Shown here: piece after piece, positions 1 through 64,000 of the stretch
Layout: every line of letters starts with the position of its first letter
Numbering within the stretch: the stretch's first letter is position 1
NCBI GenBank assembly: GCA_016184315.1
Contig: JACPCU010000014.1
Coordinates: forward strand, 64,724 to 128,723
DNA from: Nitrososphaerota archaeon
Lineage (GTDB): Archaea > Thermoproteota > Nitrososphaeria > Nitrososphaerales > JACQRY01
Length of the DNA: 64,000 nucleotides
Direction: 5' to 3'
Notes under the pieces: model-generated
The model's input: only the letters and a program-made list of their open reading frames with translations
The model's database searches: none
What the model was told of the DNA's origin: nothing
Position numbers and translations under genes: made by a program

Positions 1-2
1 GC

Positions 3-206
3 TTCAAGTTTCTCCCGGTTGACAGGGCAGTTGCATACAAAGGCGCCGAAATCAGAGCAGCCTGCGGACTCAAGCTCCCCGACGCTCTTATCGCCGCCAC
101 ATCCCTTCTAAACAACGCCCACAGCTTGGTCACCAGAGACAAGAAAATGTACGCCAAGGTAGAGGACCTGCGAACATCAACGCCCGAAGAACTAGGCTAT
201 CAGTAG
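3..206 (+). CDS. vapC: PIN-domain (VapC-like) toxin, C-terminal part; the 5' end lies outside the window
   Basis: Reading from base 3 to TAG at 204-206 gives ...LPDALIAATSLLNNAHSLVTRDKKMYAKV..., a typical PIN C-terminal block. Confidence 0.6.
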   Translation, partial: FKFLPVDRAVAYKGAEIRAACGLKLPDALIAATSLLNNAHSLVTRDKKMYAKVEDLRTSTPEELGYQ

Positions 207-374
207 AAACGAACATCCAACCGTCCAGACTTGTTAACACAAATCCGTCGTGCAACACCTAGAATAATCGATCAAGTCAACAGACCTGTCCACAACTGAC
301 ACAAAAGAATCTCCGAACAAACCGTATCAATAGGACAGCCTAAATAACAACTGGGTGGGACAAAAAGTGGGACC

Positions 375-617
375 ATGACACAAGAAGCAGTGATCGACAA
401 GAAAGGCAGAGTCGTCATCCCAAAACAGCTACGGGAGAAACTACGCCTACGTAACCAAACAAAAGTCAGACTCACCCTAGACGACGGAAAACTCATCATA
501 GCAAAAACAGTAACCCCCGAAGAATTCATCAACAAAATGGAAGGCTGCATCAAAGAAGACACACTCCTCCCCAAAACAAACCCCTTAGACCTCAAACGGA
601 TATGGGAACAAACATGA
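375..617 (+). CDS. vapB: AbrB/SpoVT-family antitoxin (VapB-like)
   Basis: 80 aa. The N-terminal IDKKGRVVIPKQLREKL is a swapped-hairpin motif. The stop overlaps the next ATG (ATGA). Confidence 0.8.
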   Translation: MTQEAVIDKKGRVVIPKQLREKLRLRNQTKVRLTLDDGKLIIAKTVTPEEFINKMEGCIKEDTLLPKTNPLDLKRIWEQT

Positions 618-733
618 TCTACGTAGACACCAACTACTGGATCTACTGGTTCGACAAACGCCTACCAGAACACAGAGACGTCCTGAAAACCATGAGAAAA
701 GCCACACGGGAAGGAATCATTCGGACGATCTGA
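614..733 (+). pseudogene. vapC: Truncated PIN (vapC) gene; only the first 39 codons remain
   Basis: MIYVDTNYWIYWFDKRLPEH... has the PIN N-terminal Asp motif and is translationally coupled to the antitoxin. It stops at TGA 731-733, far short of the ~130 aa of a PIN domain. The end coincides with a composition change and the start of the next TA cassette. Confidence 0.55.
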
Positions 734-763
734 TTTTATAGCAAAACGTTAAACAATTCCCGA

Positions 764-1075
764 TTGCACATACGTGAATCAATTGCCAGAAGAGTCAAGA
801 AATCCGTCAAGTTTACAGAGCATGCGAGACTGGCTATGCGCGACGACAATCTAACCACCCACAATGTCTTGGCAGCCGCCCAAAGTTTTCAAGTAGTAGA
901 AAAATATCTCGATGCCAAGCCCTTTCCAGCATGTCTGTTGCTATGTCGGCTGGACGATGGAAGTCCACTGCACGTGGTGTGTGCTCTGCCTGAAAGCGTA
1001 GATATGTTAATAATTGTGACCGTGTATAAACCTTCAGAATCCGAATGGTCGGATCAAGGAAGGAGAAGGAAATGA
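764..1075 (+). CDS. DUF4258-like putative toxin
   Basis: 103 aa. The pattern FTEHARLAMRDDNLT...PFPACLLL...GSPLHVVCA...IIVTVYKPSESEW resembles my recollection of DUF4258. It is coupled to the zinc-ribbon gene downstream. Confidence 0.55.
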   Translation: MHIRESIARRVKKSVKFTEHARLAMRDDNLTTHNVLAAAQSFQVVEKYLDAKPFPACLLLCRLDDGSPLHVVCALPESVDMLIIVTVYKPSESEWSDQGRRRK

Positions 1076-1320
1076 GAGCAGGAAAATGCCCAATCTGCGG
1101 AGGAAAGACTACTATGAAGCGAGTCGATGTGACTGAATCAGTTGGCAATAGGCTTGTAGTTGTAAAGAGCGTAGAGGCCGAGGTGTGTACTCAATGCGGA
1201 GAACGTCTGTATTCAGAAAGCACTATGCGCAAACTCGACTCACTAATGCAGAAAGTGAAGTCAGGATCAGCTAAGCCAGAGAGCAAAAGAGAACTCGAAG
1301 TATACGCATTGAGTCATTAG
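1072..1320 (+). CDS. YgiT/MqsA-type zinc-ribbon protein (putative antitoxin)
   Basis: The ATG at 1072 overlaps the upstream stop (ATGA). The motif CPICGG...VEAEVCTQCGERLY is a CxxC...CxxC ribbon. Confidence 0.6.
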   Translation: MRAGKCPICGGKTTMKRVDVTESVGNRLVVVKSVEAEVCTQCGERLYSESTMRKLDSLMQKVKSGSAKPESKRELEVYALSH

Positions 1321-2102: not shown

Positions 2103-2211
2103 ATCTACCGTTGATATGGCGGTACTTGTGACAGAAAAGCTTTACGGTATCTACCATAACGGTTAAATAAGGTATTTACCCTAAATACTCTACCGAAAAC
2201 GGTGAAAAAAC

Positions 2212-2397
2212 ATGCCCAACGCCTTCAAATGCGCAGACTTCACAGGAAACCACTACCAAGCAGAATGCCCACCCACAGAAGAACTATGCGCATACAACCA
2301 TGAAGCCTTCAGCACCGACTACACCCTATGCGGAACCAGAAGCGAAACAATCAGCGGCGCAAACTACCGCCTACTACTCAAAGAGGCAGACTACTGA
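2212..2397 (+). CDS. Small Cys-containing protein (61 aa), function unknown
   Basis: Its stop (TGA 2395-2397) overlaps the ATG at 2397 of the next gene. It has four Cys and the same A/C-ending codon bias as the downstream gene. Confidence 0.4.
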   Translation: MPNAFKCADFTGNHYQAECPPTEELCAYNHEAFSTDYTLCGTRSETISGANYRLLLKEADY

Positions 2398-3587
2398 TGC
2401 CCGCCAGAAAATGGAGCGGCAGCGGAGACCAGATCACAGGAAACGACTGGAACACTATGGTCGACTGGCTGCAAAAGGAGACTGCTTCACATGACCATGA
2501 CGGAACAACGAATCACGGCGTCAAGATCAAGCCCGTCAACCTTTCTTCCTTACTGGCAGATGCAGCTAACTTCGACTGGACACTCAAAAAAGCCACGCCA
2601 GCGGTCAGACTCATAGGCACAGAAACATCGTGGAAAGACGTCAGGATCAGCGAGGACGCAGGGTTAATCAAATTCCAGCACAACACGGGAACCGAATCCG
2701 TCCCAGTCTGGACAAACAGGCTCACAGTAGATATGGCGGATGGGGCTCTCGTAGGCGTGAAACTCGGCGGACAGATGGACGCTAATAATCAAACAATCAC
2801 GAATTGCCTCCTCATCCAAGGGAGAAACGTCAATGGCCCAAGCCTCGCATTCCAAGGCAGACGCAACGTTGCCGTTGGAGTAGACACTTCGTTCGAAACA
2901 AGAAACGCCGCTGACAGTGCCTACGTCACAGCCCTAGAAATATACGGCCTGTATAATGCAGGGAAGGGAAAAATCGCCTGCTATCAACCCTTCTTGCTTA
3001 CCGGCGGCATCGACCCAGACAACACCGTGGTTTCAGGCTATCCCGGCATAATGACCGACGTGGGAAACAACCTTTTCCTTAAAGCCGGAACCGGCGGCGT
3101 CTTCAAACTCGCCAACATAACGTTCTCAGCAGTAATATTCGAAGTAGACAATTCAGGCATCATAAAGCCGTACAGCCACATAACCCCGAATGCAGACAAC
3201 ACAGTAACCGTAGGCGCGACCGATAAACGCCTAGCAGGAGTAAACATCGACACCGTCAACGGCATCCGCATCTGGAACAACCCCACTCCAACAGACACCT
3301 ACCCGCTCACAAAACTCACAGACAAACTGTGGTTCGGACCCGGAGGCACCGGCTCAGACATCGACACTAACCTCTACCGCGGCGCAGCCAACCTCTTGAA
3401 GACAGATGATGCTCTAAACATCCAGGGCAGACAGTATCTAGGCTCCCCGAACAGTGCTCCTACCGACAGTGATCTGTTCAACGGAAGCATAAGCCTCTAC
3501 CTGGACGAAGCGGGAAACAACCTCAAAGTGAGAGTCAAGTACTCCGACGGAACGACTCTGAAGACGGGGAGCATCGCCTTGACGTAG
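2397..3587 (+). CDS. Virus tail-fibre-like / receptor-binding-like protein
   Basis: The internal start MPARKWSGSGDQITGNDWN... is preferred over the ORF-track start at 2328. The motifs SHDHDGTTNHGVKI and QMDANNQTITN and a Gly/Asn/Thr-rich beta-type sequence resemble fibre proteins of tailed viruses. This was judged by eye only. Confidence 0.45.
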   Translation: MPARKWSGSGDQITGNDWNTMVDWLQKETASHDHDGTTNHGVKIKPVNLSSLLADAANFDWTLKKATPAVRLIGTETSWKDVRISEDAGLIKFQHNTGTESVPVWTNRLTVDMADGALVGVKLGGQMDANNQTITNCLLIQGRNVNGPSLAFQGRRNVAVGVDTSFETRNAADSAYVTALEIYGLYNAGKGKIACYQPFLLTGGIDPDNTVVSGYPGIMTDVGNNLFLKAGTGGVFKLANITFSAVIFEVDNSGIIKPYSHITPNADNTVTVGATDKRLAGVNIDTVNGIRIWNNPTPTDTYPLTKLTDKLWFGPGGTGSDIDTNLYRGAANLLKTDDALNIQGRQYLGSPNSAPTDSDLFNGSISLYLDEAGNNLKVRVKYSDGTTLKTGSIALT

Positions 3588-3611
3588 CCTCCATGCAGGT
3601 GAGTTTGAGAA

Positions 3612-4281: not shown

Positions 4282-4509
4282 TTGTCAACAGTGACACAGA
4301 AGTATCAGGCAACAATACCAAAAGAAGTCAGAAAAAAACTCGGCATCAAACCTAGAGACAAAATCGTATTCTTCGAAGAATCACCCGGGAAATTCACAGT
4401 AATGAAAGAAGAAGATTTCGTCAGGCAGATAGCGGAGATTTGCCAAGACATAGACAAGACTGTAGAGGAAAGCAAGAAAGGGTTCAGCAGAGGCATAAAG
4501 AAGCAATAG
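4282..4509 (+). CDS. vapB: AbrB/SpoVT-family antitoxin
   Basis: 75 aa. The N-terminus reads QKYQATIPKEVRKKLGIKPRDKIVF. A PIN gene lies 16 nt downstream. Confidence 0.8.
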   Translation: MSTVTQKYQATIPKEVRKKLGIKPRDKIVFFEESPGKFTVMKEEDFVRQIAEICQDIDKTVEESKKGFSRGIKKQ

Positions 4510-4525
4510 AGAGGTCAGTCAAAAG

Positions 4526-14963: not shown

Positions 14964-15344
14964 TTGAACAACCGTGGAATAGAAGAAAAGATCAGTGACG
15001 CAGTCGCCCAGCTCAATCAGGGCGACTATGTTACTGCCACTTGGATAGACGCCTCCCAGACCAGACCGATCAGGTTGCAGGGGAAACCACTGCCAAACCA
15101 CACCGTTGAAACCAGAAAGACCACCTCAGGCAGATTCATTACGCTGCAACGAGGAGACACATGGCACGACCCGCACCTCGTACTGGGAATAGAGAAGACC
15201 GACGACCAATGGGAGATCATAAGCATACCCCTCTCCCTAGTAAAACAGCTTTCATCAGCCGAAGCCAAGGAACCCCTGAAAGGAACCCCCAGATCCGCGA
15301 AGAGACGCTTCGCAGACGGCAGCGTGAAAAACTATGGTGACTGA
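14964..15344 (+). CDS. Hypothetical protein (126 aa)
   Basis: An ORF with strong A/C-ending codon bias shared with the downstream genes. No family was recognised. Confidence 0.45.
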   Translation: MNNRGIEEKISDAVAQLNQGDYVTATWIDASQTRPIRLQGKPLPNHTVETRKTTSGRFITLQRGDTWHDPHLVLGIEKTDDQWEIISIPLSLVKQLSSAEAKEPLKGTPRSAKRRFADGSVKNYGD

Positions 15345-15561
15345 AGACACCGTCCACACCAAAGAGAAAGACGACAAACTCGAAATCAAAGACGCCCACC
15401 TACGAGTAACGGAAAGAGACTACCGCGCTCTAATAGCAACACTACTAGTAACAGGACTACTAATACTCCTACTCAAAGGAGACCACCAAGCAGCAAGCAC
15501 CATCGGCCCACTCGCAGGCTCAGCCATAGGCTGGTATTTCACCGGAGGACGACAGCGATGA
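15334..15561 (+). CDS. Small two-TM membrane protein (holin-like topology)
   Basis: 75 aa with a charged N-terminus, then ALIATLLVTGLLILLL and GPLAGSAIGWYF. It overlaps both neighbours. Confidence 0.4.
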   Translation: MVTEDTVHTKEKDDKLEIKDAHLRVTERDYRALIATLLVTGLLILLLKGDHQAASTIGPLAGSAIGWYFTGGRQR

Positions 15562-15722
15562 GCAACCGCCCCGACCAACCAAAGACGACCCCGAATGAAA
15601 AATGGGGAGGAGCAAGAACAGGCGGATTCAGATTCACCCACAGACAAGGAACCCACGACGACCTCGCCTACGCCCTAGCACTAGCATGCCGGGCAGCCAA
15701 AACCCCGACAGAGGAGAAATAG
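15558..15722 (+). CDS. 54-aa ORF ending in a RuvC/terminase-nuclease-like motif (possible gene stump)
   Basis: The ATG overlaps the upstream stop (ATGA). The sequence ...GTHDDLAYALALAC... resembles the last catalytic-Asp motif of RuvC-fold nucleases and large terminases. It is too short to be a complete enzyme. Confidence 0.3.
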   Translation: MSNRPDQPKTTPNEKWGGARTGGFRFTHRQGTHDDLAYALALACRAAKTPTEEK

Positions 15723-15729
15723 TCACAAT

Positions 15730-17205
15730 ATGAAGATCATCCTACACCCACCACAAAAGACACCCAAAAAAGAATTCAAAGTCAACAAAACCTTCAACAC
15801 CAAATCAGCAACCACCAAACGAACCATAGACATCTCCGAAGCCTTCGGCATCGGCATAGACGAACAAAAAACCTTCACAGTCTACAAAAACTTCACCGCA
15901 GACATAAACCCAGGAGACATCACATACATCACAGGAGACTCAGGCAGCGGCAAAAGCCTCCTCCTCAAAGAACTCTCAACAGCCATCCAAAACCTACAAG
16001 AATTCAGAGGCATAGCCCCCACCACCGAACCCGACCCCAACGAAATACTCATCGAAGGCGTAGGCAAAGACACCGGCGAAGCCATCTTAACCCTCAGCAA
16101 AACCGGGCTAAACGAAGCCTTCCTCATGCTCCGCAGATACAGAGACCTCAGCGACGGCCAAAAATACCGTTACCGCATCGCCAAAGCCATAGACTCAGGA
16201 AAAGGAACATGGATATTCGACGAATTCTGCTCAGTTCTAGACAGAACAACAGCCAAAGTCGTAGCCTACACAATTCAAAAAGCAGCCCGAAAACACAACA
16301 AAACACTGATCGTCGCAACAACACACACAGACCTCTTCGACGAACTCGACCCATCAGTATACATCTACAAACAGTTCGGAAACAACGCGAAAATAGACTA
16401 CAGGCAAAACAACCAACTCGGCAAACACAGCTTCAGCCTACTCAACGAAGCCACAATCCGCGAAGGAACCAAAGAAGAATTCCAACACCTAGAATCCTTC
16501 CACTACCGCGGAGGACTACCAGCCTTCACAAAAAAGATCTACGTAGCCGAGCTAAGAGGAGAAATCATCGGAGGCATCATCTACTCCTCACCCCACCTCG
16601 CCCTCACAGGAAGACACCTCGCACTACCCGAATACAAAATACGGCCAATGAAGGAGCGACTCAAAAAACTCAACACCGATTTCCTCCGGATAAGCAGAGT
16701 AGTCATCCTACCCAAGTTCAGAAGTATAGGCCTAGGAGTCATGCTCGTCAAGGAAACGGTGAAGAAGGTACACGTCCCCTACGTGGAGACTCTGGCAGTA
16801 ATGGCGAAATATAACCCCTTCTTCGAGAAAGCAGGATTCCGCAAAATCTATGATCCGCTGCAGGAACAAAGCACTCTGGTCAGACTGCTCAAAAAGCTTG
16901 GGCAATTGGGCTTGAACACCGATCTGATACGCAGCAAGAACGCCAACCTACAATATCTTAACCGCCTAAACCAGAAAGACCTCCAAGCAATTCTGGACAC
17001 ACTCATCGCCCATAACGCCAACGCAAAGCGTCTAAGCCGCGCCATAACACTCATCGAAAAAGCCAAGAAAGGGGACAGAGAAGCCTTGGCAGACGCTCTA
17101 ACCAGACTTCCGTTGCCGGCCGTCTACCTGATCTGGAAGAACCCCGCCCACCAGCTCAAAGAACACCACGATCCACATGCTTCAGGCTCCCAAGCAGCAA
17201 CCTAA
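15730..17205 (+). CDS. ABC-type ATPase fused to a GNAT acetyltransferase domain (COG2401-like architecture)
   Basis: The ABC motifs are Walker A GDSGSGKS (aa 69-76), signature LSDGQKYR, Walker B TWIFDEF and H-loop ATTH. The GNAT motif A is RISRVVILPKFRSIGLGVMLVKE. A helical C-terminal region follows. Confidence 0.75.
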   Translation: MKIILHPPQKTPKKEFKVNKTFNTKSATTKRTIDISEAFGIGIDEQKTFTVYKNFTADINPGDITYITGDSGSGKSLLLKELSTAIQNLQEFRGIAPTTEPDPNEILIEGVGKDTGEAILTLSKTGLNEAFLMLRRYRDLSDGQKYRYRIAKAIDSGKGTWIFDEFCSVLDRTTAKVVAYTIQKAARKHNKTLIVATTHTDLFDELDPSVYIYKQFGNNAKIDYRQNNQLGKHSFSLLNEATIREGTKEEFQHLESFHYRGGLPAFTKKIYVAELRGEIIGGIIYSSPHLALTGRHLALPEYKIRPMKERLKKLNTDFLRISRVVILPKFRSIGLGVMLVKETVKKVHVPYVETLAVMAKYNPFFEKAGFRKIYDPLQEQSTLVRLLKKLGQLGLNTDLIRSKNANLQYLNRLNQKDLQAILDTLIAHNANAKRLSRAITLIEKAKKGDREALADALTRLPLPAVYLIWKNPAHQLKEHHDPHASGSQAAT

Positions 17206-17230
17206 CCTACCGTACGTATCACTGATGCCT

Positions 17231-17386
17231 CTAATTCTCCTCGAAGTCCACCTCAATAACAGCCTTCCTCGGAGACTCCACGCCCCTAAGAGGAGTTATG
17301 AGCCCTCTCACCACATTACCCACTATATCATTCACAAAGAGAGCAGTTTCCAGGACTTTTCCATCGACGGTTATCTTGACTTTCAA
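17231..17386 (-). CDS. Possible small beta-rich protein (51 aa from TTG)
   Basis: The open frame directly after the 17444 gene's stop reads (M)KVKITVDGKVLETALFVNDIVGNVVRGLITPLRGVESPRKAVIEVDFEEN*. It is below the track cutoff and the start is uncertain. Confidence 0.3.
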   Translation of the reverse strand: MKVKITVDGKVLETALFVNDIVGNVVRGLITPLRGVESPRKAVIEVDFEEN

Positions 17387-17848: not shown

Positions 17849-18126
17849 GCTACTTATTACCTTTTTCGGTTAACCCAACTCGATATTTACTCTGAACAGT
17901 AACCATTATCTTGAAATAAATCATGACCTAGTTCCCATATCTTCAGCAATCCCACGCCCTACACCAGTCCCAACCTCCCAAGATCCACGACCAACTACTT
18001 CAAGAAGCACAGACATTTCCAGCAATAACAACATCAAAACCCATGATTTCATGCGAAAGGAAAACAAATCGGTCTTTGTCCAATAACGGTAAAACTTATA
18101 CACATCCCAGCGTCTACAGACATGCC

Positions 18127-19062
18127 ATGCCTGATGCGGAGAAACCGGATGCAGTACAAAAGATCTACAGATCATTATCGAACCTAGACTCAATGTTCCT
18201 ATTCAACCTCGCAGTAGAGGGAATAGAAGCAAGCACAGGAGCAGAAGCCAAATACGGCCTAACCCACAGGCGCTACTACAAACGCCTCAAAGAACTCACC
18301 GACAGCGGCCTCATAACAAAACAAGGAGGCAAATACGTGCACACAACACTAGGCTCAGTCTTCTACGAGAGCCAGCTCAAACCCCTACGCCAAATACTCC
18401 TCAAACGCGACACCATACAACTACTAGAGAAATTCAAATCCACCTCACCACCATCAGAAGAAGGCCCATCAAAAGCCCTCCAAGAACTAGAAGACATGCT
18501 CGGCATCTCAGACCTAAAACCTGTACGCATAATCAAAGAATGGGACGAAGTAGTGGCAACACTCCAAAGAAACATCGAAACCATGAACCACCAGCTCCTA
18601 ATAGCAACACGCTACGCCGACTTCAGAACAGTACAAAGCACTCTCCAAGCCCTCAAGAAAGGAGCCAAAATAAATGTGCTCCACGGCGACCGCGGAGGAA
18701 TAACCACCAAAGTACAGCTGATCGCCAACCTCCTCGCCCAAGGAGGCAGCTTCAAAAAATACCTTGAACTAGTCAAGAACCCAAACGTTGATCTAAGACA
18801 CTCCTATGTCCCCTACTCCTTCTTCATCATTGATGAAACATTCGTCGGAATCGAAATAGTGAACCCCGCCTCCCCCAACGACTTCTTCATAGGAATAAGC
18901 TTCGAAAACGCCGCCCTCGGACAAAAAATGTCCGAATACTTCAACATAATGTGGGAGAAAGCCCGGAAAGACCCCATGGACTCCTTCTTCGGCAAACCCG
19001 ACGAAGAAATACTGAAAGGCTTACTCGAACTCACCGCCAAACAAGACTCCACCTCCAACTGA
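18127..19062 (+). CDS. TrmB-like transcriptional regulator (wHTH plus PLD-like C-terminal domain)
   Basis: From ATG 18127. The wHTH reads GLTHRRYYKRLKELTDSGLITKQGGKYVHT. The C-terminal half (LLIATRYADF...INVLHG...YSFFIIDETFVGIEI) matches the TrmB C-domain pattern. Confidence 0.55.
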   Translation: MPDAEKPDAVQKIYRSLSNLDSMFLFNLAVEGIEASTGAEAKYGLTHRRYYKRLKELTDSGLITKQGGKYVHTTLGSVFYESQLKPLRQILLKRDTIQLLEKFKSTSPPSEEGPSKALQELEDMLGISDLKPVRIIKEWDEVVATLQRNIETMNHQLLIATRYADFRTVQSTLQALKKGAKINVLHGDRGGITTKVQLIANLLAQGGSFKKYLELVKNPNVDLRHSYVPYSFFIIDETFVGIEIVNPASPNDFFIGISFENAALGQKMSEYFNIMWEKARKDPMDSFFGKPDEEILKGLLELTAKQDSTSN

Positions 19063-19073
19063 GGCGAATCTGC

Positions 19074-19955
19074 TTGCTGAAAGGTGGCAGCCGATATGCC
19101 ACCTTTAGAAGCTATTTCGTACTGATCCGCTCAGAGAAACGAGTCGTCATATTCGTCTGGGCCCTATTCGCCTCCATCGTAATCGCATCAGGCAGAGTCG
19201 TAGACCCGACGAAAACCCTGATGGCCATAGTAGCCATGTATTGCCTAAGCCTATCAGTCTACCTGCTCAACGACCTAATGGACATCGATGAAGACAAAGT
19301 CAACTCGCCCAACAGACCCCTAGCCTCAGGCAAAGCCACCGAAAAGGACGCTTCGATCCTAATAGTCATAACCGGCCCCCTCTCTCTCATACTTGCCTAT
19401 CTCATAAACCCTCTAACGCTAATACTCTTCACCCTCGCCATGATACTCGGTTTGTCATACTCACTCCCCAAAGTAAGAGCAAAGGAAAGATTCCCCCACA
19501 AAGTCCTAGTAGCATCCGCAGGAGCAGCCATATCAAGCCTAACCGGCGGAACAGTAGCTGGCTCAATCTCACCAGGCGTCATCCTTGCAGCAGGCGTCTT
19601 CGCCCTATTCGCCCAAGTCACACTCCTCCTAGGCGACCTGGCCGACGTCAAAGGAGACATACTGAGAGGAATCAAATCCTTCCCCATAGTGCTGGGAAGC
19701 AAGATCACTTCCAGAATTATCCAAAGCATACCGCCAACAATCTTCACACTTACAATAGGCTTCCAAGTAGCCTTCTACCCGAGCATCACGACCCCCCTTC
19801 TGATCGGAGCACTATGCTTCTACTGCTGCGTCACAATGAAAGACTTGGCGAAGAAATGCACTGACTACGGGTTCTGCAGGCTGGTTAAAGGAAAGATGAG
19901 AACTGTGCATCTTGTGCTTCAGCTCTCCTTGATGATAGGAGCAGTAACCTTCTGA
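19074..19955 (+). CDS. UbiA-family prenyltransferase
   Basis: It has the motif NDLMDIDEDKVNSPNRPLASG (NDxxDxxxD) and about 8 TM helices. A TTG start at 19074 is proposed, because the longer track ORF overlaps the upstream gene. Confidence 0.8.
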   Translation: MLKGGSRYATFRSYFVLIRSEKRVVIFVWALFASIVIASGRVVDPTKTLMAIVAMYCLSLSVYLLNDLMDIDEDKVNSPNRPLASGKATEKDASILIVITGPLSLILAYLINPLTLILFTLAMILGLSYSLPKVRAKERFPHKVLVASAGAAISSLTGGTVAGSISPGVILAAGVFALFAQVTLLLGDLADVKGDILRGIKSFPIVLGSKITSRIIQSIPPTIFTLTIGFQVAFYPSITTPLLIGALCFYCCVTMKDLAKKCTDYGFCRLVKGKMRTVHLVLQLSLMIGAVTF

Positions 19956-20013
19956 TGCGAAACCTAAACAAATATCTCCAGTCACCTCCTCCACCCCCAT
20001 AGGCGCGCAAAAC

Positions 20014-21759
20014 ATGGCTAGAACCTCCGAAATGGCGGCGCAAATATCCAACTATGAGGCCGCAGCCTCCTTCTACGAACTCGCCTTCTACATGGATCTG
20101 GAGGACGACCCTTTCAGAGGGAGAGCCTACGAAAGGGCGGCCCGAGCCATCGAGTCATCCCCACAGTCAATCATAGCTCTATACAAGAAAGGAGGAGTAG
20201 ATGAACTACAAACCCTACCCGGCGTGGGAAAAGCCATAGCAAAGAAACTACAAGACCTATTCAAAACCGGCAGAATCCCCACCTTGGAGAAACTCCAAGC
20301 CAAATACCCCATCAAACTAAGCGAACTCCTCTCAGTAGAAGGCCTAGGACCAAGGAGAATCAAAACTCTCTACGAGAAACTCTCAGTGAAAAACCTCGAA
20401 GACCTAGAAACAGCCGCCAAAACAGGCAAGGTGAGGCAGCTGACAGGTTTCGGAGAGAAGACCGAGGAGAAGATCCTGCAGAGCTTGGAGTTCCTGAAAG
20501 CTGAGAAAGGAAGAATACCCCTCGCAATAGCCATACCCTTAGCAGACCAATTTCAACATGCCCTAGCAAGTGTAGAGGGCGTTGAAGAAGTCTACGTGGC
20601 TGGAAGCATAAGAAGAGGCAGAGAAACCATTGGCGACATAGATCTACTCGCCATAACATCTAATCCAAGACAAGTCATAGATACCTTCACGTCTCTCCCC
20701 CAAGTAGTAGCAGTACATCAGAAGGGCGAAGTCAAAGCCTCCATCAGACATAAATCTGGCATAGACGCCGATCTAAGAGTCATCCAAAAGGGAAGCATGG
20801 GCGCAGCCCTCATGTATTTCACGGGCAGCAAAGAACACAATGTCGCTCTGCGAACCATAGCGTTAAGTAAAGGCATGCACCTCAATGAATACGGCCTATT
20901 CAAAAAAGAAAAGAAGACCGCCGGCGAACAGGAAGAAGAAGTCTACAAGACCCTAGGCCTCCCATACATTCCACCGGAGCTAAGAGAGAACAGAGGCGAA
21001 ATAGAAGCAGCCTCCAAGAACAGTCTCCCACACCTAGTTGAGCTAACAGACCTGAAAGGAGACCTGCAGGTCCAGACCAGCTGGACCGATGGCGCCAACA
21101 GCATCACAGAAATGGTTCAAGCTGCGAAAACCTTTGGCCTAGAGTACATCGCGATAACCGATCACACAAAGAGCCTAGCTATGACTGGAGGCCTGAACGA
21201 AGAGAAACTCCGAACACAGATGAAGGAGATAGACAAGCTCAACCAGCAATCGGATGGCTTCAGGATCCTGAAGAGCGCGGAAGTAAACATACTGAAAGAC
21301 GGCAGCCTAGACATAGACGATCAAACACTTGGAGATCTCGATGCCGTAGGAGCAGCGGTTCACACCAACTTCAACCTACCCAGAGAAGAAATGACTCGGC
21401 GAATCATCAGAGCCATTGAGAATCCCAATGTGGATATTCTCTTCCACCCTACGGGCAGACTCATCGGGCAGAGGCCACCATATCAAGTAGACATAGAATC
21501 TGTGATTGAGGCAGCTAAGAGGACTGACACTATCCTGGAGATAGATGCTTATCCTGAACGCCTAGACTTGAAAGATGAGCATGCCCGAATGGCTGTAGAC
21601 AGAGGGGTGAATCTCTGCATAGATTCTGATGCTCATTCCAAGGAACAATTCCCCTATTTGCAGTACGGCGTTACGCAGGCTAGGCGAGGTTGGGCTGCAA
21701 AAGAAAGCATTGTGAATACTAGGTCCGTAGACGAGTTTCTAAGGTATGTGAAGCATTAG
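20014..21759 (+). CDS. polX: Family X DNA polymerase with C-terminal PHP domain
   Basis: 581 aa with an HhH region (LPGVGKAIAKKL) and the nucleotidyltransferase motif GSIRRGRETIGDIDLL. The PHP domain reads ITDHTKSLAMTGG...DSDAHS. Confidence 0.9.
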   Translation: MARTSEMAAQISNYEAAASFYELAFYMDLEDDPFRGRAYERAARAIESSPQSIIALYKKGGVDELQTLPGVGKAIAKKLQDLFKTGRIPTLEKLQAKYPIKLSELLSVEGLGPRRIKTLYEKLSVKNLEDLETAAKTGKVRQLTGFGEKTEEKILQSLEFLKAEKGRIPLAIAIPLADQFQHALASVEGVEEVYVAGSIRRGRETIGDIDLLAITSNPRQVIDTFTSLPQVVAVHQKGEVKASIRHKSGIDADLRVIQKGSMGAALMYFTGSKEHNVALRTIALSKGMHLNEYGLFKKEKKTAGEQEEEVYKTLGLPYIPPELRENRGEIEAASKNSLPHLVELTDLKGDLQVQTSWTDGANSITEMVQAAKTFGLEYIAITDHTKSLAMTGGLNEEKLRTQMKEIDKLNQQSDGFRILKSAEVNILKDGSLDIDDQTLGDLDAVGAAVHTNFNLPREEMTRRIIRAIENPNVDILFHPTGRLIGQRPPYQVDIESVIEAAKRTDTILEIDAYPERLDLKDEHARMAVDRGVNLCIDSDAHSKEQFPYLQYGVTQARRGWAAKESIVNTRSVDEFLRYVKH

Positions 21760-28665: not shown

Positions 28666-28757
28666 ATTCTCACGGGCTAATTATGGTCTGGCTATCTTTT
28701 TCCAAGTTTTAAGGGTAAGGGACGCTTGATATATCTTGCTCGCGGAAATCTGACTCA

Positions 28758-40576: not shown

Positions 40577-40644
40577 GTCTTGTCGACGAAGAAGAATATC
40601 TCTTAAAGTATTTGTGCATTCTCAGGGTCGAATCTATCTCAAAG

Positions 40645-40815
40645 CTTTTGTTTTTGCGGGGTGGTTTGTGCGCGTGTGTTCTTGGGTTGTCTCCTAGGGG
40701 GGTTTTTATTGGTTCGGGGTTTGGTTTCTGCTGTTTTTGTTTTGTTGGAGGTGTTTTCTGGTTGTTGGGGTGGTGTTTTCTGGGTTGTTTGCGGTGGTGT
40801 AGGCTGGGGCTCTTC
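40645..40815. other. Extreme G+T tract on the plus strand (A+C on the transcribed minus strand) between two co-oriented genes
   Basis: In a hand count over ~141 nt (about 40661-40800) only ~15 bases are A or C. The tract lies between the amidohydrolase stop (40862) and the enolase-family start (40576). Confidence 0.8.
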
Positions 40816-40861
40816 TCTACGCGTGTAAGGCAGGTATGTTTTGAGATAGGCTCGTCCTACA

Positions 40862-42253: not shown

Positions 42254-42357
42254 GGTATGAGTGACATTGGGGGATAATTAGAGTCTTACTCTTGCCTTGA
42301 TGGCGGGTTAACATGGATATGTTTGTGGTTGTCAAAAAAGGGGGAGTGCCCAACCTT

Positions 42358-58169: not shown

Positions 58170-60290
58170 CTACACTTCTCCTGTGCGCAGCCTGAAGTTC
58201 AGGAACGGATCCACAGTCAAAGTTGATTTCGGCGCCACGGGGATTGTGTTGCCCATCAGCTCCACTACTGCGGGCCCCTGAATCTGGTTTCCATTCCTCA
58301 ATCTGTGTCCATCGTAGATGACTGTTCTCAGGAATCTGTCTTCTTCTTCAAAGTAGACTTCTCTGTAACCTTTCTTGGTTTTGGACAGGTCGGAACTCGT
58401 TTGTTCACTCTTCTTCAAAGAGGGTTTCCATGTTCTGCCTAGGATATCGACGCGGAAGGTTGACGCCTCTAAGCCTGCCTCAGAGTAAGCTGTCCCACTT
58501 CCGTAGCGAGTCTCATAGGTGTCGAGAAACCTGTTCTCTAGGGTCTTCGCGTCGATCTCTGACAGGGTGCCGTTGGGAACAGACACCATTAACTCGTTCA
58601 TCTGCGCCCTGAACCTTAACCCTATGGATCTGATTAGGAACAATGAGTCCGGAGGCAAATGCCATGGGGCAGCAGCCTCTAAGGCAGTTTTCTCAAGCTT
58701 AGAAAAGTTCCCGTTGAACCGACTCAGATCTGGCGGGAACCGCATATAGTCCGACAGAACATATGACTGTTGGAGATCAGACACAGCCACGCCAAACGCA
58801 CTGTGCACAGTTGCCAAAGAGGGAATAACTACTTGCTGCGATAACTCTTTCGCGTACCCCGGGCAGTGGAGAGGCCCTGCTCCCCCGTAGGCGAAGAGCA
58901 CAAACTCATTAGGATCCAGCCCACGTTCCACCGTGGCGTTACGAATCAAGTCTGCTGCTTGACTGTTAGCTACACTGTAGATCCCTGCAGCTGCTTCAAC
59001 CATGTCTACCCCTAGTCTGTCTGCTAGTTTCTTAACGGCCTCCTTGGCGTTATGCTCGTCGAGCCTCATTTTTCCTCCGAGGAAATAGTCAGGATTAAGA
59101 TAGCCCAACACAAGATCAGCGTCAGTAACTGTGGGCTCAGCACCTCCCCAGCCATAGCATGCAGGCCCAGGATTCGCTCCTGCGCTTCTCGGCCCTACTT
59201 TGACCATGCCTCCTTCATCTATCCAGGCTAAGCTTCCTCCACCTGAACCTATGGCTGTCAGATCTATGGTGGGAACCTGAAGGGTGTAGCGCGTCATGTA
59301 AGGGCCGAAGCGAGGGGAAAACGCTTCAGCCCTAATTAGGGGGCTACCGTCAAGGATTACTCCGACTTCGAAGGTTGTTCCCCCCATGTCTGTTGTGATG
59401 ATGTTTGAGAAGCCTAAGAGTTCACCTAGGTATTTGGAGGCGATTACTCCTCCTGCTAGGCCCGATGCTAGTGTTGACACCGCCATCTTGGGGGCGTCCG
59501 ACATCGGTATGACTCCTCCGCTCGACTGCATCATAAGAGGTGTCGAGACGAGGCCGTTGGAGAAGAGGGCTTCCCGCAGATCCTCAGCGTAACGCCTTAA
59601 CACGGGGCCCAGATAGGCGTTGATGGCTGTTGTAGCTGTCCGCTCATATTCTCCCAGCACAGGGGCGACTTCAGAAGATAGGCTTACGAACAGGCCTTTC
59701 CTCTTACGTTCAATTATCTTCTTGACTGTCTGCTCATGGCTGGGGTTCTTGAAGGACCATAGGAGTGAGACTGCTATCGATTCGACTCCCTTGTCAATTA
59801 GGTTTTCGACTGCTTCCTCAGCGCTCTTCTCGTTTAGCTGGCAGATCACTTCGCCGCTGTAGTCAACTCTCTCTTCCACCTCTTCGGTTAGATCCAATGG
59901 CACTATCATAGGTGGTCTTGTAACTCTGTTCATGTCTACCGCCTCAGATTCGGGGAGGCCTGCGGCCCTTGTGGCTTTCATCATGTAGAGGTGATGCTGG
60001 AAGCCCTTGGTGGTGATAAGCGCGGTTTTGGCGCCTCGGAGCTGGACGAGGGCGTTGACGGCTACTGTTGTGCCGTGGGCGAAGAGTTGTGTGTGTTTGA
60101 GGAGGTCTGGTATGCTTAGCTGTAGTTGTTGGGCTAGGATTTGGAGGCAGTTGACTACTCCTGTGTGTATGTTGTCTGTCGTTGGGGTCTTGGCGTAAAC
60201 CATGTTTTCGTCTTCTCCCATCGCGATTCCGTCGGTGAAGGTGCCTCCTACGTCGATTCCGACGGAGTATTTTGTTGATCTTTGTTCCAT
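58170..60290 (-). CDS. hyuA: Hydantoinase A/oxoprolinase-family subunit
   Basis: 706 aa with the ATPase motifs SVGIDVGGTFTD and TDMGGTTFEV. It lies 5 nt upstream of hyuB. Confidence 0.9.
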   Translation of the reverse strand: MEQRSTKYSVGIDVGGTFTDGIAMGEDENMVYAKTPTTDNIHTGVVNCLQILAQQLQLSIPDLLKHTQLFAHGTTVAVNALVQLRGAKTALITTKGFQHHLYMMKATRAAGLPESEAVDMNRVTRPPMIVPLDLTEEVEERVDYSGEVICQLNEKSAEEAVENLIDKGVESIAVSLLWSFKNPSHEQTVKKIIERKRKGLFVSLSSEVAPVLGEYERTATTAINAYLGPVLRRYAEDLREALFSNGLVSTPLMMQSSGGVIPMSDAPKMAVSTLASGLAGGVIASKYLGELLGFSNIITTDMGGTTFEVGVILDGSPLIRAEAFSPRFGPYMTRYTLQVPTIDLTAIGSGGGSLAWIDEGGMVKVGPRSAGANPGPACYGWGGAEPTVTDADLVLGYLNPDYFLGGKMRLDEHNAKEAVKKLADRLGVDMVEAAAGIYSVANSQAADLIRNATVERGLDPNEFVLFAYGGAGPLHCPGYAKELSQQVVIPSLATVHSAFGVAVSDLQQSYVLSDYMRFPPDLSRFNGNFSKLEKTALEAAAPWHLPPDSLFLIRSIGLRFRAQMNELMVSVPNGTLSEIDAKTLENRFLDTYETRYGSGTAYSEAGLEASTFRVDILGRTWKPSLKKSEQTSSDLSKTKKGYREVYFEEEDRFLRTVIYDGHRLRNGNQIQGPAVVELMGNTIPVAPKSTLTVDPFLNFRLRTGEV

Positions 60291-60584
60291 TGGTGTTGAG
60301 CCTCACATGGACTTTGGATGCTGTGCTTCTGGTGTAGGGGTAGTTATGTTTGACCCATCTTCCTTTCGATTTGAGCTAAAGTTGTTTCGTTGGACAGTAG
60401 ATGGGGGTTGCGGTGCTTGAATGTTGTTTTGACTAGGGTCCGTTGAAGAGGTTTTCGGCTGGGTATTGGGTTAGTAGTGGAGGGTCTCTTGTCTTTGTTG
60501 CAAGGCTGATATGTTCGCGGCTCCATTAGGAATATTAGCAAGGTGCATTCTCTGTGTCATGGTCTTTTCTAAGAGTGTGGGTGT

Positions 60585-61376
60585 GTGAAGACAGGTTTGA
60601 AGAACAGGTGGCTGCTGCTCGTGGGTCTATTCTCTATCCTACTGCTAGTCGCCTCACCTACAGCTGCATACGCTAGTCCTTTCACCGGTAGGAAGAGCGT
60701 TGAGTCTTCTTCCACGCAGTTTCTGATAGAGTCTCCGAGTGGTGGCGGAGCGGTGTGGAGTCAGGTCGTCTTGAAGGTCCTCATAGATCCGAATGTGTAT
60801 TCGCCGAGTTCCATAGAAGTGTCGGCGGGGCGTCGAGGCATAGATAGCTGGAAGACGTACATAACGTGGTTCTCGGTGAAAGATTGGGATGGAAACGGTG
60901 CCCCAGATCATCCTTGGCTCGACCGTTTGAGCTTCATAGTTTATGTGATGGGTGTAAACGAGAGTCTTCTAGCAGGGACTGCGGACATAACAGTAACATA
61001 CTATTCTCAGATATCGCCGAGATCAGCATTGGGCTACGCGAGTTTGGACTACAAGAGAGTCGGCGGACAGTATGCGATAAGTTATGTCGAAATAGCTTTA
61101 GCTGTGAGGGGGCTCAGCACTGTGGGCATACAGAATGTTGCGGCACACGAGTTCGGCCACGCGTTGGGCTTGGGTCACAGCAACAAGAGAGGTGATCTGA
61201 TGTACCCTGCTTTTGATGCGAGTACGGAGAATAGGCTTGTTGTGCTGCCCTCAACGCTTAATCTTTACGCGCTTGCCTTGACATACGGGTGGCTTTCTTC
61301 GGGTGTCTTCTCAGAATATCGCGGCCGGTTGTCGGTAACCCTGCCGCCGAGCCATATTGCCGCAGCGTACAGATGA
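60585..61376 (+). CDS. Secreted metzincin (matrixin-like) zinc protease
   Basis: It has a signal peptide (LLLVGLFSILLLVASPTAAYA) and HEFGHALGLGHS (HExxHxxGxxH). The start is GTG. Confidence 0.75.
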   Translation: MKTGLKNRWLLLVGLFSILLLVASPTAAYASPFTGRKSVESSSTQFLIESPSGGGAVWSQVVLKVLIDPNVYSPSSIEVSAGRRGIDSWKTYITWFSVKDWDGNGAPDHPWLDRLSFIVYVMGVNESLLAGTADITVTYYSQISPRSALGYASLDYKRVGGQYAISYVEIALAVRGLSTVGIQNVAAHEFGHALGLGHSNKRGDLMYPAFDASTENRLVVLPSTLNLYALALTYGWLSSGVFSEYRGRLSVTLPPSHIAAAYR

Positions 61377-61494
61377 TTGGACCCCGAGTTTCAGGTCTTC
61401 ACATAGGAATCGTCAGAGAGCCGTGGTAGCAACAATTGCCACGACGAAATATCGCAGAGGACATAAATAGCTAGATCTACGCTTGCGAACTCAA

Positions 61495-61911
61495 ATGAGC
61501 GAAAACTACTCTTTACCTGTGAACGAGAAGGCCTATGACACTTTGGCGAAGGCAAGAAAAACAGGAGAGAATTTCTCCGATGTCATCATGCGTCTGGCTT
61601 CTACGAAGCTAGTAGGTCTTCAGAAGCGAGGAGAACAGGTCATCACAAGTTCAGATGGAAAGAAGATCAGCATCAAGATCGAGCAGGACCTGTGCTTTGG
61701 AGCCGAGAGCTGTGTTAACTTGGCACCCATGGTTTTCGCTCTTGATGTGAGTCACTTGGGCTTCGGTCGAAAAGGTTCTGAGCCTCTGGGCATGATGGAT
61801 GTCCCGGAGGGTTCGGTTACAAGTGAAACAGTTGTTTTGGCGGCGCGTTCATGTCCCTATCGAGCCATAATTGTGAAGGATGTAGAGTCAGGGGAGCAGT
61901 TGTCTCCGTAG
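61495..61911 (+). CDS. Fusion of a VapB-type (PF02697-like) antitoxin domain and a single-cluster ferredoxin domain
   Basis: The N-terminus reads YSLPVNEKAYDTLAKARKTGENFSDVIMRL (compare the 5036 antitoxin). The C-terminus reads KIEQDLCFGAESCVNLAPMVF...AARSCPYRAI, a ferredoxin pattern with three Cys. An alternative TTG start is at 61483. Confidence 0.6.
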   Translation: MSENYSLPVNEKAYDTLAKARKTGENFSDVIMRLASTKLVGLQKRGEQVITSSDGKKISIKIEQDLCFGAESCVNLAPMVFALDVSHLGFGRKGSEPLGMMDVPEGSVTSETVVLAARSCPYRAIIVKDVESGEQLSP

Positions 61912-62008
61912 GCCGCCGTCGCGATTTGCACTGATGTTAACTAATATCGAATGGTTGGACGGCAGTTGGAGGGCTTCATTCAGCCACGTTGCATGGGGTT
62001 GGCGTTGT

Positions 62009-62965
62009 TTAGAGGCTTGTTTTCATCGGTCTTTTCTCGTATTCTAGTAGTTCTTTTAGTCCTTCGCGGATGGAGTAGTGGGGCTCGTAGTTGAAGTCTT
62101 GTCTTGCGGCGGAGATGTCGAAGACGCCTCCTTCCATAGTTTGGGGGAGGTTTTTGGCTGTGGTGGAGACTTCTCTTCCGGCTTTTATCTGGGCTCCGGG
62201 GATAAGTTCTTGGACTGTGTCTACGAGCTCTCCTATTGTGGTTGCTCCGGAGTTTATGTTGTAGAAGAGGCTGCTGGTCTTGCCGGTTTTGCTGGCTAGG
62301 AAATGGGCTCTGGCTGCGTCTTTGACGTATGTGGTGTACATGGTTGTACTGCGGTCGTATGGTAGGGCTGCTGGTTGTCCTCTTAGGGGTTTGCCTAGGG
62401 CTTCGTCGGTTATTCCGCTGATGCCTGTTCTCTGGCCGGGTCCGTAGATGAGTCTCAGTCTGAGTCCGTTGATTACTAGGCCGTATTTGCTGGTGTATGT
62501 TTCGCAGTAGCCTTCGCTTGCGAGTTTGGTTATTCCGTAGAAGCTGTTTGGTCTCCTAGGATAGTCTTCTTTGATTAGGGCGTCGTCTTGGGTGGGGCCG
62601 TAGACGCTGGAGGTGCTTGTGTAAACCATTTTCTCTATGTCGGTCAGCCTGCAGGCTTCAAGGACGTTCACTGTGCCTAGGAAGTTTACTTTGGCTGCGG
62701 CTACGGGTCTGTTGTTGGATTCCTTGGTGAGGAGGGAGGCTGTTTGGATGATTTTCTTTACGTTGTTGTCTTTGATGGCCTGCGCTATCTCAGCTAGGTT
62801 CAGCATGTCTCCTTTGACGTGTTTGACTTTGTCGGCTGCTTCTCCCAGGATAGTCTTCGGGGGAGGAGCTAGGTCGAAGACGATGGGTGTTTCGCCGCTG
62901 TGAAGTATTTCTAACGCGATGTGGGCGCCTACGTTGCCCGAGCCACCGATAATCATGGTGCTCAT
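62009..62965 (-). CDS. NAD-dependent epimerase/dehydratase (extended SDR)
   Basis: 318 aa with IIGGSGNVGAHI (GxxGxxG) and YGITKLASE (YxxxK). Confidence 0.9.
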   Translation of the reverse strand: MSTMIIGGSGNVGAHIALEILHSGETPIVFDLAPPPKTILGEAADKVKHVKGDMLNLAEIAQAIKDNNVKKIIQTASLLTKESNNRPVAAAKVNFLGTVNVLEACRLTDIEKMVYTSTSSVYGPTQDDALIKEDYPRRPNSFYGITKLASEGYCETYTSKYGLVINGLRLRLIYGPGQRTGISGITDEALGKPLRGQPAALPYDRSTTMYTTYVKDAARAHFLASKTGKTSSLFYNINSGATTIGELVDTVQELIPGAQIKAGREVSTTAKNLPQTMEGGVFDISAARQDFNYEPHYSIREGLKELLEYEKRPMKTSL

Positions 62966-63083
62966 GGGTTGGAAAGGGTCGGGATAGTCATGTCCTAGAT
63001 AAACGAATCTTTAGGCTTCTTGAGATCGACAGAGGTGTATTGAAGTTGGATATTGTCTGAGTAGCTTGCTTGTGTAGCGGGGA

Positions 63084-63103
63084 GACCCCCCTTACAATAT
63101 AAA
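63084..63103 (-). promoter_or_regulatory. Shared TATA-containing motif (copy 2), upstream of the epimerase gene
   Basis: The plus strand reads GACCCCCCTTACAATATAAA. It matches 32298-32318 apart from one C. Confidence 0.35.
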
Positions 63104-63176
63104 TTTGAAGTTACCTTATCCTCGGCTTTTTTTCACGGCGACATGACATTGATCTGCGGTCAAGGGTCTTACAGAG

Positions 63177-63725
63177 TTAGAGTGTTTCTTCGGTTGCTTC
63201 TTCATAGATTTTTAGGTCATAGGGAGAGAAGAGGGTGAAGACGACTTCCCGCAGGCTACTTTCTTTGTGCAGGAATTCCGTGACTGTCTTCAAGGCTACT
63301 CGGCTGGCCTTTTCAATAGGGTATCCGTATGCTCCTGTGCTGATCGAAGGAAAAGATATGCTCTTCAGGTCTTTGGAGGCTGCTAGGCTGAGCGAGTTGC
63401 GATAGCAATCTGCTAGGAGGTTTGGTTCGCCGTGGTTTCCGCCTCTCCATACGGGTCCAACGGTGTGGATTACGTGTCTGGCCTTCAGTTTGCCTCCTGT
63501 GGTTATGACTGCTTTCCCTGTTGGTAGTCCGCTAGGCCATTCTGTTTTTCGTATCTTCTTGCATTCTTCATGTATCTTGGGTCCGCCTCGGCGGTGTATG
63601 GCTCCGTCCACTCCTCCTCCGCCCATTAGGCTTGAGTTAGCCGCGTTCACTACTGCGTCTGTTTCCTGATCGGTTATGTCTCCTTGGATAATACTGATCT
63701 TTGTTTGGCCTAGTATTCTTTCCAT
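63177..63725 (-). CDS. Macro-domain protein (ADP-ribose/O-acetyl-ADP-ribose hydrolase, Af1521/YmdB-like)
   Basis: 182 aa with DITDQETDAVVNAANSSLMGGGGVDGAIH and ISTGAYGYP. Confidence 0.9.
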   Translation of the reverse strand: MERILGQTKISIIQGDITDQETDAVVNAANSSLMGGGGVDGAIHRRGGPKIHEECKKIRKTEWPSGLPTGKAVITTGGKLKARHVIHTVGPVWRGGNHGEPNLLADCYRNSLSLAASKDLKSISFPSISTGAYGYPIEKASRVALKTVTEFLHKESSLREVVFTLFSPYDLKIYEEATEETL

Positions 63726-64000
63726 GTGCTTACGCCATTTCAGATAATAGTCTGAGTTGCTTTGATATTTTAGTGCTTGGACAGTCAGTTTTCGGTTAGT
63801 TGGGGATATTGTTCAGTTGTCGAGAGTCGCTGGGTTTGGAGCACTGACATAGACCTCGTTTAGGGAGGGGTTATACAAAGCGGGTAAAATGAACACGCCT
63901 GAAGCCTGAATAGGTGTGTTGTGCAGTGTTGCATAATCATAGCGAATAATCAAGGAAATTTGATTCGAGTGCGCTTGAGCTGACGGCATCACCCCTACTC

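Follow-up and report, generated by a model that had tools for sequence, protein, structure and literature searches.

Local patches of strong amino/keto strand asymmetry in an archaeal chromosome and their recurrence at a TerL/ABC-GNAT cassette

A 64,000-nt stretch of the genome of a Nitrososphaerota archaeon (contig JACPCU010000014.1, assembly GCA_016184315.1; hereafter the window) contains patches in which most silent positions of one DNA strand are A or C and those of the other strand G or T. Overall the GC content of the window is 50% and the four bases are about equally frequent. The skew is genuine, tied to the DNA strand and lineage-specific; it is also long-lived and recurrent, and translation does not drive it. 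In other archaea it is found again at a cassette that encodes the terminase large subunit (TerL) and an ABC-ATPase/GNAT protein (ABC-GNAT). The patches may mark chromosomal domains under a lasting local mutation pressure that acts in situ and unequally on the two strands, an explanation that we judge evenly poised between right and wrong. Patches in the window had been noticed earlier by reading codons from the bare sequence (the original prediction); the link to the cassette and the recurrence beyond the window are new here. No published description of the pattern was found in the literature on strand asymmetry in Thaumarchaeota, keto/amino skew and archaeal proviruses.

Skew was measured as KM = (G+T-A-C)/N, negative values denoting an A/C-rich plus strand. 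In 400-nt windows KM ranged from -0.47 to +0.405, well beyond the extremes of 200 shuffles (-0.27 and +0.21), and its standard deviation (SD) between windows was 0.14 compared with 0.05 in shuffles. A three-state hidden Markov model (HMM) run on the keto/amino sequence called nine patches, together 19% of the window, with nearly the same borders as had been read by eye; the remainder was neutral. The plus strand was A/C-rich in 1-707, 2178-3327, 15084-17338, 17914-19059 and 19960-20429, and G/T-rich in 40522-40855, 41923-43529, 59911-60631 and 61691-63839. It is A/C-rich in the left half only and G/T-rich in the right half only. Background skew outside the patches is about +/-0.03, with a weak change of sign near 30-31 kb; patches are neutral or skewed and never sign-reversed. 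Neutral genes in both orientations lie between them.

The signal is concentrated at silent positions. The fraction of codon third positions that are A or C (A/C3) had a mean of 0.519 (SD 0.066, minimum 0.39) in 31 ordinary genes of the window, which served as the baseline. In core patches 86-96% of third positions are A/C on one strand, as against 52% in neutral genes. A separate segmentation of third positions, in plus-strand terms, delimited saturated segments at 15762-16641 (A/C3 0.96), 18153-19688 (0.86) and 61872-62621 (0.09), and segments of mixed gene orientation at 16644-18150 (0.64) and 59178-61869 (0.36). At four-fold degenerate sites KM was -0.72 in gene 15730-17205, -0.75 in 18043-19062, +0.73 in 62009-62965, +0.58 in 63177-63725 and +0.46 in 42358-43674. 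Amino-acid composition as the cause can be rejected, since the signal resides in third and four-fold positions while first and second positions move mildly: A+C at codon positions 1/2/3 was 0.57/0.56/0.87 in pooled extreme segments and 0.47/0.52/0.52 in neutral genes. The GC content of patches (0.47-0.52) equals that of the host. The skewed regions and the genes they contain are as follows.

1..707, plus strand: A/C-rich patch with the 3' end of a PIN gene, an AbrB antitoxin gene (375-617) and a truncated PIN gene.
2178..3590, plus strand: moderate A/C-rich patch with a virus-like tail-fibre-type gene (2397-3587); segment 2807-3551 has an A/C3 of 0.78.
14964..17338, plus strand: copy of the cassette lacking TerL, with a saturated core at 15762-16641 (96% A/C3) and a sharp fall at 16642.
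14964-15344, 15334-15561 and 15730-17205, plus strand: cassette genes for a small protein, a membrane protein and the ABC-ATPase/GNAT protein, respectively, together with a 54-aa (amino acid) gene.
17231-17386 and 17444-17848, minus strand: two genes embedded in the A/C region, with coding strands 65-67% G/T-ending.
17914..21414, plus strand: A/C-rich run through DUF7436/wHTH, UbiA and PolX codons 1-467, ending inside PolX.
28399..30444, plus strand: mild A/C3 excess (0.62) within a minus-strand aminopeptidase N gene, from third-position segmentation.
40522..40855, minus strand: short non-coding tract, about 74-87% A/C on the minus strand, between two minus-strand genes.
41923..43529, minus strand: A/C-rich patch with a solute-binding-protein gene (42358-43596) and the first ~110 codons of an amidohydrolase gene.
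59911..60631, minus strand: patch with hyuA codons 1-89 and the entire divergent intergenic region up to the metzincin start codon.
60585..61911, plus strand: metzincin and ferredoxin-like genes between two G/T patches, with weak skew of the same DNA polarity.
61691..63839, minus strand: patch with epimerase (62009-62965) and macro-domain (63177-63725) genes.

Polarity follows the DNA strand, as originally proposed. The two minus-strand genes at 17231-17386 and 17444-17848 have coding A/C3 values of 0.33 and 0.35, compared with the ordinary minimum of 0.39, and so share the DNA-strand polarity of the surrounding A/C region at lower strength; the second had been estimated by eye to use about two thirds NNG/NNT codons and uses 65%. 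A pure gene-direction effect is therefore not a sufficient account. Opposite-strand genes and intergenic DNA reach only ~0.6-0.7 in the window, and the description that fits best is a regional DNA-strand bias of ~0.65-0.70, which includes intergenic DNA and opposite-strand genes, with saturated segments on top. In the right half the predicted skew of the epimerase gene, the solute-binding-protein gene and the 5' end of hyuA was borne out. The metzincin gene, expected to use mostly NNG/NNT codons, is only 59% G/T-ending, which lies within the ordinary range; the ferredoxin-like gene has 58% G/T third positions, with 73% in its last 45 codons, and neither is significant singly.

As the source is a metagenome-assembled genome (MAG), chimeric assembly, a bias of sequencing chemistry, or translational codon bias mistaken for strand skew have to be considered. 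Such an artefact is extremely improbable. Single-run Logan assemblies from six runs, among them SRR12113390, 422, 426, 428 and 432, were compared with the window over three stretches, and all compared contigs were 100% identical to it, most patch borders being spanned. Coverage came from SRR12113422, 426 and 432 for parts of 52009-63950 and from SRR12113390, 422, 426, 428 and 432 for parts of 14234-27205, and one contig from SRR12113432 was compared over -808 to 11240. Chimeric assembly was rejected on this ground. Patch genes have intact reading frames and conserved products, and the same phenomenon occurs in unrelated JGI metagenomes. A diversity-generating retroelement or other targeted hypermutation does not fit, as proteins are conserved, changes are mostly silent and sampled populations are identical. 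No close paralogues or repeat pairs were found in the window. The Logan assemblies stop at identical points, 14234 in three runs and 63950 in two, which hints at population heterogeneity or repeats there.

Inside patches each synonymous family moves to both its A-ending and its C-ending codon, and rare codons become commoner (ATA from 0.30 to 0.42, CTA from 0.15 to 0.37, AGA from 0.34 to 0.45). At third positions the gain of A equals the loss of G and the gain of C equals the loss of T (~0.17 each), so that GC stays constant. Intergenic DNA within patches is skewed as well (0.68 A+C). The histone gene, presumed to be highly expressed, prefers G-ending codons (A/C3 0.34), and the genes for FBP aldolase/phosphatase, TIM, GDH and histone, used as a proxy for expression, have no A/C skew. 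Translational codon optimisation was rejected on these grounds: rare codons are favoured, the histone gene goes the opposite way and intergenic DNA is skewed too.

Selection might instead act on nucleic-acid composition itself, favouring unstructured A/C-rich transcripts or a G/T-rich template needed for function or control. Silent positions do exceed intergenic DNA in skew (0.87 versus 0.68), the coding strand is the A/C-rich one in 76 of 98 confidently phased patch chunks over all loci, and skew lasts through long divergence while proteins are conserved. Selection of this kind is nevertheless quite unlikely. Both polarities reach extremes in homologous genes (see below), the skew extends over non-coding spacers and over an essential gene on the opposite strand, borders lie in mid-gene and orthologues work unskewed; in addition, rare codons are favoured and the histone gene is opposite.

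The cassette copy in the window has many relatives. A family-alignment search confirmed more than 440 ABC-GNAT matches, at least, in each of two collections (JGI metagenomes and IMG/VR), from which 160 ABC-GNAT loci (L031-L190; 1.63 Mb) were taken as a wider sample. Across these loci the cassette encodes a ~126-aa protein, a ~80-aa membrane protein, a small helix-turn-helix (HTH) protein, TerL (assigned by Pfam Terminase_6N/6C) and the ABC-ATPase/GNAT protein. In the window the counterparts of the ~126-aa and ~80-aa membrane proteins are 14964-15344 and 15334-15561, and TerL is missing. ABC-GNAT is frequent in IMG/VR viral contigs, often at the contig end.

A/C3 of ABC-GNAT varies from 0.25 to 0.97 across loci. 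It is at least 0.70 in 20 of the 160 homologues and at least 0.84 in seven (L089 0.97, L093 0.96, L105 0.93, L074 0.92, L094 0.91, L032 0.86 and L031 0.84). Extreme values have at least four independent origins: the nearest relatives of the lineages concerned have 0.52-0.67, and within one clade of 75-87% protein identity A/C3 runs from 0.28 to 0.75. Windows with an absolute KM500 > 0.25 are found from -2 kb to +1.5 kb around ABC-GNAT in 4-9% of loci per bin, compared with mostly 0-4% elsewhere; in control loci none of 525 windows exceeded this value. Polarity can be reversed: TerL of L107, on the opposite strand, has a coding A/C3 of 0.21, and the 3' half of ABC-GNAT in L065 falls to 0.03-0.20. 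In L069 the same strand switches abruptly from G/T-rich to A/C-rich at 3712/3713, inside the first cassette gene. A switch of this kind would be expected around a break or nick that recurs; it is clear in L069 only. When 25 strong patches were averaged, low skew extended ~3 kb past the 3' edge of the A/C-rich strand and none was seen upstream of the 5' edge.

Skew at the cassette has persisted in place. In two lineages, L094 (a 637-kb Bathyarchaeia contig) and L074, the cassette lies beside a convergent gene for arginyl-tRNA synthetase (ArgRS). Identity between the two loci is 69% for ABC-GNAT as well as for ArgRS, and the cassette is extreme in each (0.91 and 0.92), showing that the skew was kept in situ through ~30% protein divergence. 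It can spill into the adjacent, essential, opposite-strand ArgRS gene. In L094 plus-strand A/C3 of ArgRS is 0.74 beside the cassette and then 0.56-0.66 over 3 kb, the upstream flank being ~0.5. In L074 an internal 540-nt stretch of ArgRS (codons 300-479; 4436-5035) is ~80% G/T-ending (coding A/C3 0.17-0.23) with normal protein identity (0.72-0.75), while the same codons in L094 have 0.40-0.47. Extreme copies differ at silent sites mostly by A-C transversions (46 versus 20 transitions for L094/L105, and 57 versus 4 for L089/L093), whereas in ordinary pairs transitions exceed A-C differences ~2- to 25-fold. The prevalence of A-C transversions among extreme copies indicates that keto states have long been excluded there.

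These loci bear on a further explanation, also raised at the outset, that the patches are a mosaic of DNA from a virus or plasmid with strongly asymmetric replication, brought in by insertion or homologous recombination and leaving PolX, hyuA and ABC-GNAT as hybrids. Patch genes are largely of mobile type (toxin-antitoxin, tail-fibre-like, TerL cassette, macro and PolX), and ABC-GNAT is abundant in IMG/VR contigs, where its skew tracks a mild replicon-wide skew (r = -0.79 upstream and -0.68 downstream). Some switches fall precisely at gene boundaries, as in L089 (TerL 0.63, ABC-GNAT 0.97), and import would account for borders that are sharp and intragenic at either patch end. In ABC-GNAT of the window, A/C3 is 95% over codons 1-304 and 67% thereafter (change point 299-306, dlnL 33.7), in agreement with the earlier hand tally, and hyuA is 90% A/C-ending over codons 1-89 and then 56%. 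Not every predicted edge within a gene is of this sort: the fall at 16642 and that at hyuA codon 89 are sharp, but edges placed near 20430, 41990 and 62830 are soft, and the real drop in PolX comes at codon 467 (~21415). A/C3 in that run is 0.88 in DUF7436/wHTH (18043-19062) from codon 36, 0.77 in UbiA (19074-19955) and 0.72 in PolX codons 1-467. At the left end of the window, as predicted, the truncation point of a PIN gene (733) coincides with a patch edge. This second PIN gene (614-733) was cut to 39 codons by a DUF4258-MqsA cassette, which is compositionally neutral, in contrast to the A/C-rich PIN side; A/C3 of segment 440-718 is 0.89, and the patch runs at least 808 nt further to the left of the window in the Logan contig mentioned above.

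Nevertheless, import is rather improbable. No contig that is extreme throughout was found in the 1.63 Mb of related loci. Values on viral contigs stay within 0.25-0.77, whereas chromosomal copies attain 0.9 or more, as local islands of 1-6 kb. The ArgRS-adjacent cassette is extreme in two lineages ~30% diverged, over which imported DNA would have drifted to host composition. The patches in essential ArgRS and syntenic PolX show no unusual protein divergence, and patch GC equals host GC. Single-protein scans found no IMG/VR relatives of the epimerase and DUF7436 genes. For this window import stays a rival.

Comparison with relatives is limited by distance. No close relatives were found among 5.8 billion proteins, the best non-self matches being 63% for PolX, 60% for ABC-GNAT and 53% for hyuA; a scan of genome contigs for hyuA gave at best <=42% identity. 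The nearest orthologues are unskewed (A/C3 0.52 both for PolX in L019 and for ABC-GNAT in L025). PolX-EamA synteny is common to the window and L019, indicating that PolX is native. The two halves of ABC-GNAT are about equally similar to the nearest homologue, at 61.5% identity in the patch part and 56.7% in the remainder. In a relative-rate test with 19 outgroups, unique changes in ABC-GNAT numbered 22 versus 26 in the patch and 8 versus 8 outside; protein evolution inside the patch is not accelerated. Changes unique to the window protein are mainly V to I, D to N, V to A, I to T and R to H, which follow from G-to-A and T-to-C changes on the coding strand. In a 31-member, moderately skewed viral clade (~70-96% aa identity) transitions dominate the parsimony spectrum.

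The distribution of polarity over the window recalls replication. An A/C-rich plus strand on the left and a G/T-rich one on the right is the arrangement expected on the flanks of an origin, the background of ~+/-0.03 has the same sign and changes near 30-31 kb, and all extreme genes would be head-on to replication. A skew centred on an origin and amplified in head-on genes, or rearranged by inversions, is still very unlikely. The window has no Orc1/Cdc6 gene or long non-coding origin-like region, and the ORF-poor stretch at 32.2-33.5 kb is taken up by genes for tRNA-Glu, a histone and S17e, found with Rfam and tRNA scans, and by a ThiS-like gene. Most would-be head-on genes are neutral, the right-half plus-strand gene 51519-52283 is A/C-rich (A/C3 0.68), magnitudes are far above known replication skews, and in other genomes each patch stands alone as an island of 1-6 kb at the cassette. 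The proposal that the patches came from local inversions against a replication skew whose sign changes at 31-37 kb is not supported either, as none is sign-reversed.

Of the three explanations first offered, a strand-specific transition bias acting patch by patch fits best, and it forms the core of the mutation pressure proposed here. On one strand amino bases would take the place of keto bases (A for G and C for T). The complement would then undergo C to T plus A to G, as expected from hydrolytic deamination of exposed single-stranded DNA. That the changes were transitions is favoured by codon-family ratios and by the unique amino-acid changes, and prolonged single-strandedness of one strand is the presumed cause. 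Purifying selection would hold the proteins while silent positions saturate (86-96%), intergenic and opposite-strand DNA settles at ~65-70% and amino acids are nudged. The pressure would be bound to particular DNA segments, mostly mobile-element cassettes, and leak into host neighbours; the small-protein/membrane-protein/TerL/ABC-GNAT cassette is the clearest candidate seed. Third-position segmentation found no smooth gradient along patches, and their sharp intragenic borders were probably made by recombination tracts that swapped skewed and unskewed DNA, either way.

Two candidates are proposed for what would expose one strand. R-loops could form from untranslated or antisense transcripts, which would account for translated sense genes rarely being the G/T-rich strand. 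Alternatively, excision or resection could start from a strand-specific nick, possibly made by the terminase-type nuclease of the cassette. Repair bias could contribute: NucS/EndoMS cuts G/T but not A/C mispairs (bioRxiv 10.1101/2023.12.20.572499). In its fullest form, which we put forward tentatively and hold to be doubtful, the proposal is that some archaea (Bathyarchaeia and this 'Thaumarchaeota' MAG) carry a local mutator that acts in cis and sustains itself. Chronic exposure and deamination of one strand would separate amino and keto bases almost completely between the strands of kilobase domains, with the proteins kept, and the TerS-like/TerL/ABC-GNAT cassette would be the recurrent seed.

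Several results weigh against mutation pressure in place. All extreme segments of the window (A/C3 >= 0.86) lie on genes whose coding strand is A/C-rich, and over all loci only 22 of the 98 phased chunks have a G/T-rich coding strand; together these indicate some tie to gene direction, which under sense transcription is contrary to the classical transcription-associated bias. That intergenic DNA (0.68) is less skewed than silent codon positions (0.87) is not what mutation pressure alone would lead one to expect. Simple predictions of both the R-loop/antisense and the nick/break sub-models failed: a convergent downstream gene did not predict ABC-GNAT skew (mean 0.540 versus 0.554, p = 0.65), and a two-sided polarity switch was absent from the average over 25 patches. 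Patch intensity goes up and down several times inside one transcription unit and edges are sharp at both ends, so that no single start site with decay explains the patches. The best relatives are 53-63% identical, and four-fold cross-tables against the nearest orthologues are saturated. In the viral clade there was no net keto-to-amino flux (129 versus 227 raw, about equal per site), a count in which compositional bias of parsimony is possible.

Some further features of the window deserve mention. A dense toxin-antitoxin array (AbrB/MazE-PIN, VapB-PIN and DUF4258-MqsA) occupies -808 to 1320, 4282-6099 and 12745-13254. The C-terminal 50 aa of the tail-fibre-type gene product are 59% identical to two IMG/VR contigs. 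The embedded gene 17444-17848 has an uncharacterized paralogue at 7543-7863 (30% identical, on the opposite strand), which lies within a KaiC-like ATPase cluster (6381-9273) and has an A/C3 of 0.68. A compact cluster at 32362-33442 comprises tRNA-Glu(CTC), archaeal histone, S17e and a ThiS/MoaD-like protein; its histone (minus strand) and S17e (plus strand) genes both have a plus-strand A/C3 of ~0.63-0.66 and form a small, mild domain skewed by DNA strand. On the minus strand 40640-40860 is a 220-nt low-complexity tract of nearly pure A/C (ACAACC/AAAACA-like), bounded by the amidohydrolase stop codon and by a TATA-like box that precedes an enolase-superfamily gene; a regulatory or RNA function is conceivable. 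A 94-nt tRNA-like gene at 47763-47856 (ARAGORN; anticodon undetermined, no Rfam match at gathering score) may be an intron-containing or degenerate tRNA. The neutral right part also holds a TnpB-type zinc-ribbon transposase-like fragment (48859-49143) and an arcadin-1 family gene (53978-54319).

If the patches are made in place, a strong local strand-specific mutation process exists outside current models of replication- and transcription-linked mutation, able to rewrite nearly all silent sites and part of the amino-acid composition without destroying the gene. Patches would then record which DNA stretches spend time single-stranded in uncultured archaea. If they are instead imported, they point to an unseen class of replicon with near-mitochondrial strand asymmetry that exchanges gene fragments with its hosts. 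The skew confounds codon-usage, gene-transfer and binning methods, by which patch genes would be flagged as foreign, and a widespread, uncharacterized archaeal cassette (TerL plus ABC-ATPase/GNAT) is marked as a recurrent site.

Among known systems, horizontally acquired islands and mosaic phage genomes share with the patches their mobile gene content, sharp junctions and a truncated gene at one border. However, the patches have host-like GC, are anomalous only in how bases are split between strands and extend into native, syntenic and essential genes. Kataegis-type clusters on single-stranded DNA are likewise of kilobase scale with all changes on the same strand. In contrast to those single events with many damaging changes, the patches are a selection-filtered steady state with both C and A deamination-type changes, kept through ~30% protein divergence.

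Transcription-associated asymmetry resembles the patches in its gene- or operon-scale domains, in many edges near gene starts and in paired transitions. Its classical form makes the coding strand G+T-rich, whereas here it is mostly A+C-rich, and central-metabolism genes presumed to be highly expressed are unaffected here. It could fit only if antisense or untranslated transcription drives the patches. Chromosomal GC/AT replication skew also shows a keto excess bound to the DNA strand, and the halves of the window differ in sign; the patches, however, are several times larger in magnitude, patchy rather than spread over whole arms, without an origin in the window and, in many genomes, concentrated at a mobile cassette.

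The heavy/light-strand asymmetry of animal mitochondrial DNA appears to be the closest known analogue. C-to-T and A-to-G changes on the heavy strand, displaced and single-stranded during strand-displacement replication, are held responsible for it. Unlike mitochondrial genomes, the patches are 0.3-6 kb islands in a large cellular chromosome, sharply bordered inside genes, of variable intensity and of both polarities, and no replication mechanism is known to expose the stretches concerned. In both, one strand is A+C-rich and the other G+T-rich, four-fold sites approach saturation with GC unchanged, most genes are coded on the A/C-rich strand, and a gene on the other strand has the opposite codon bias.

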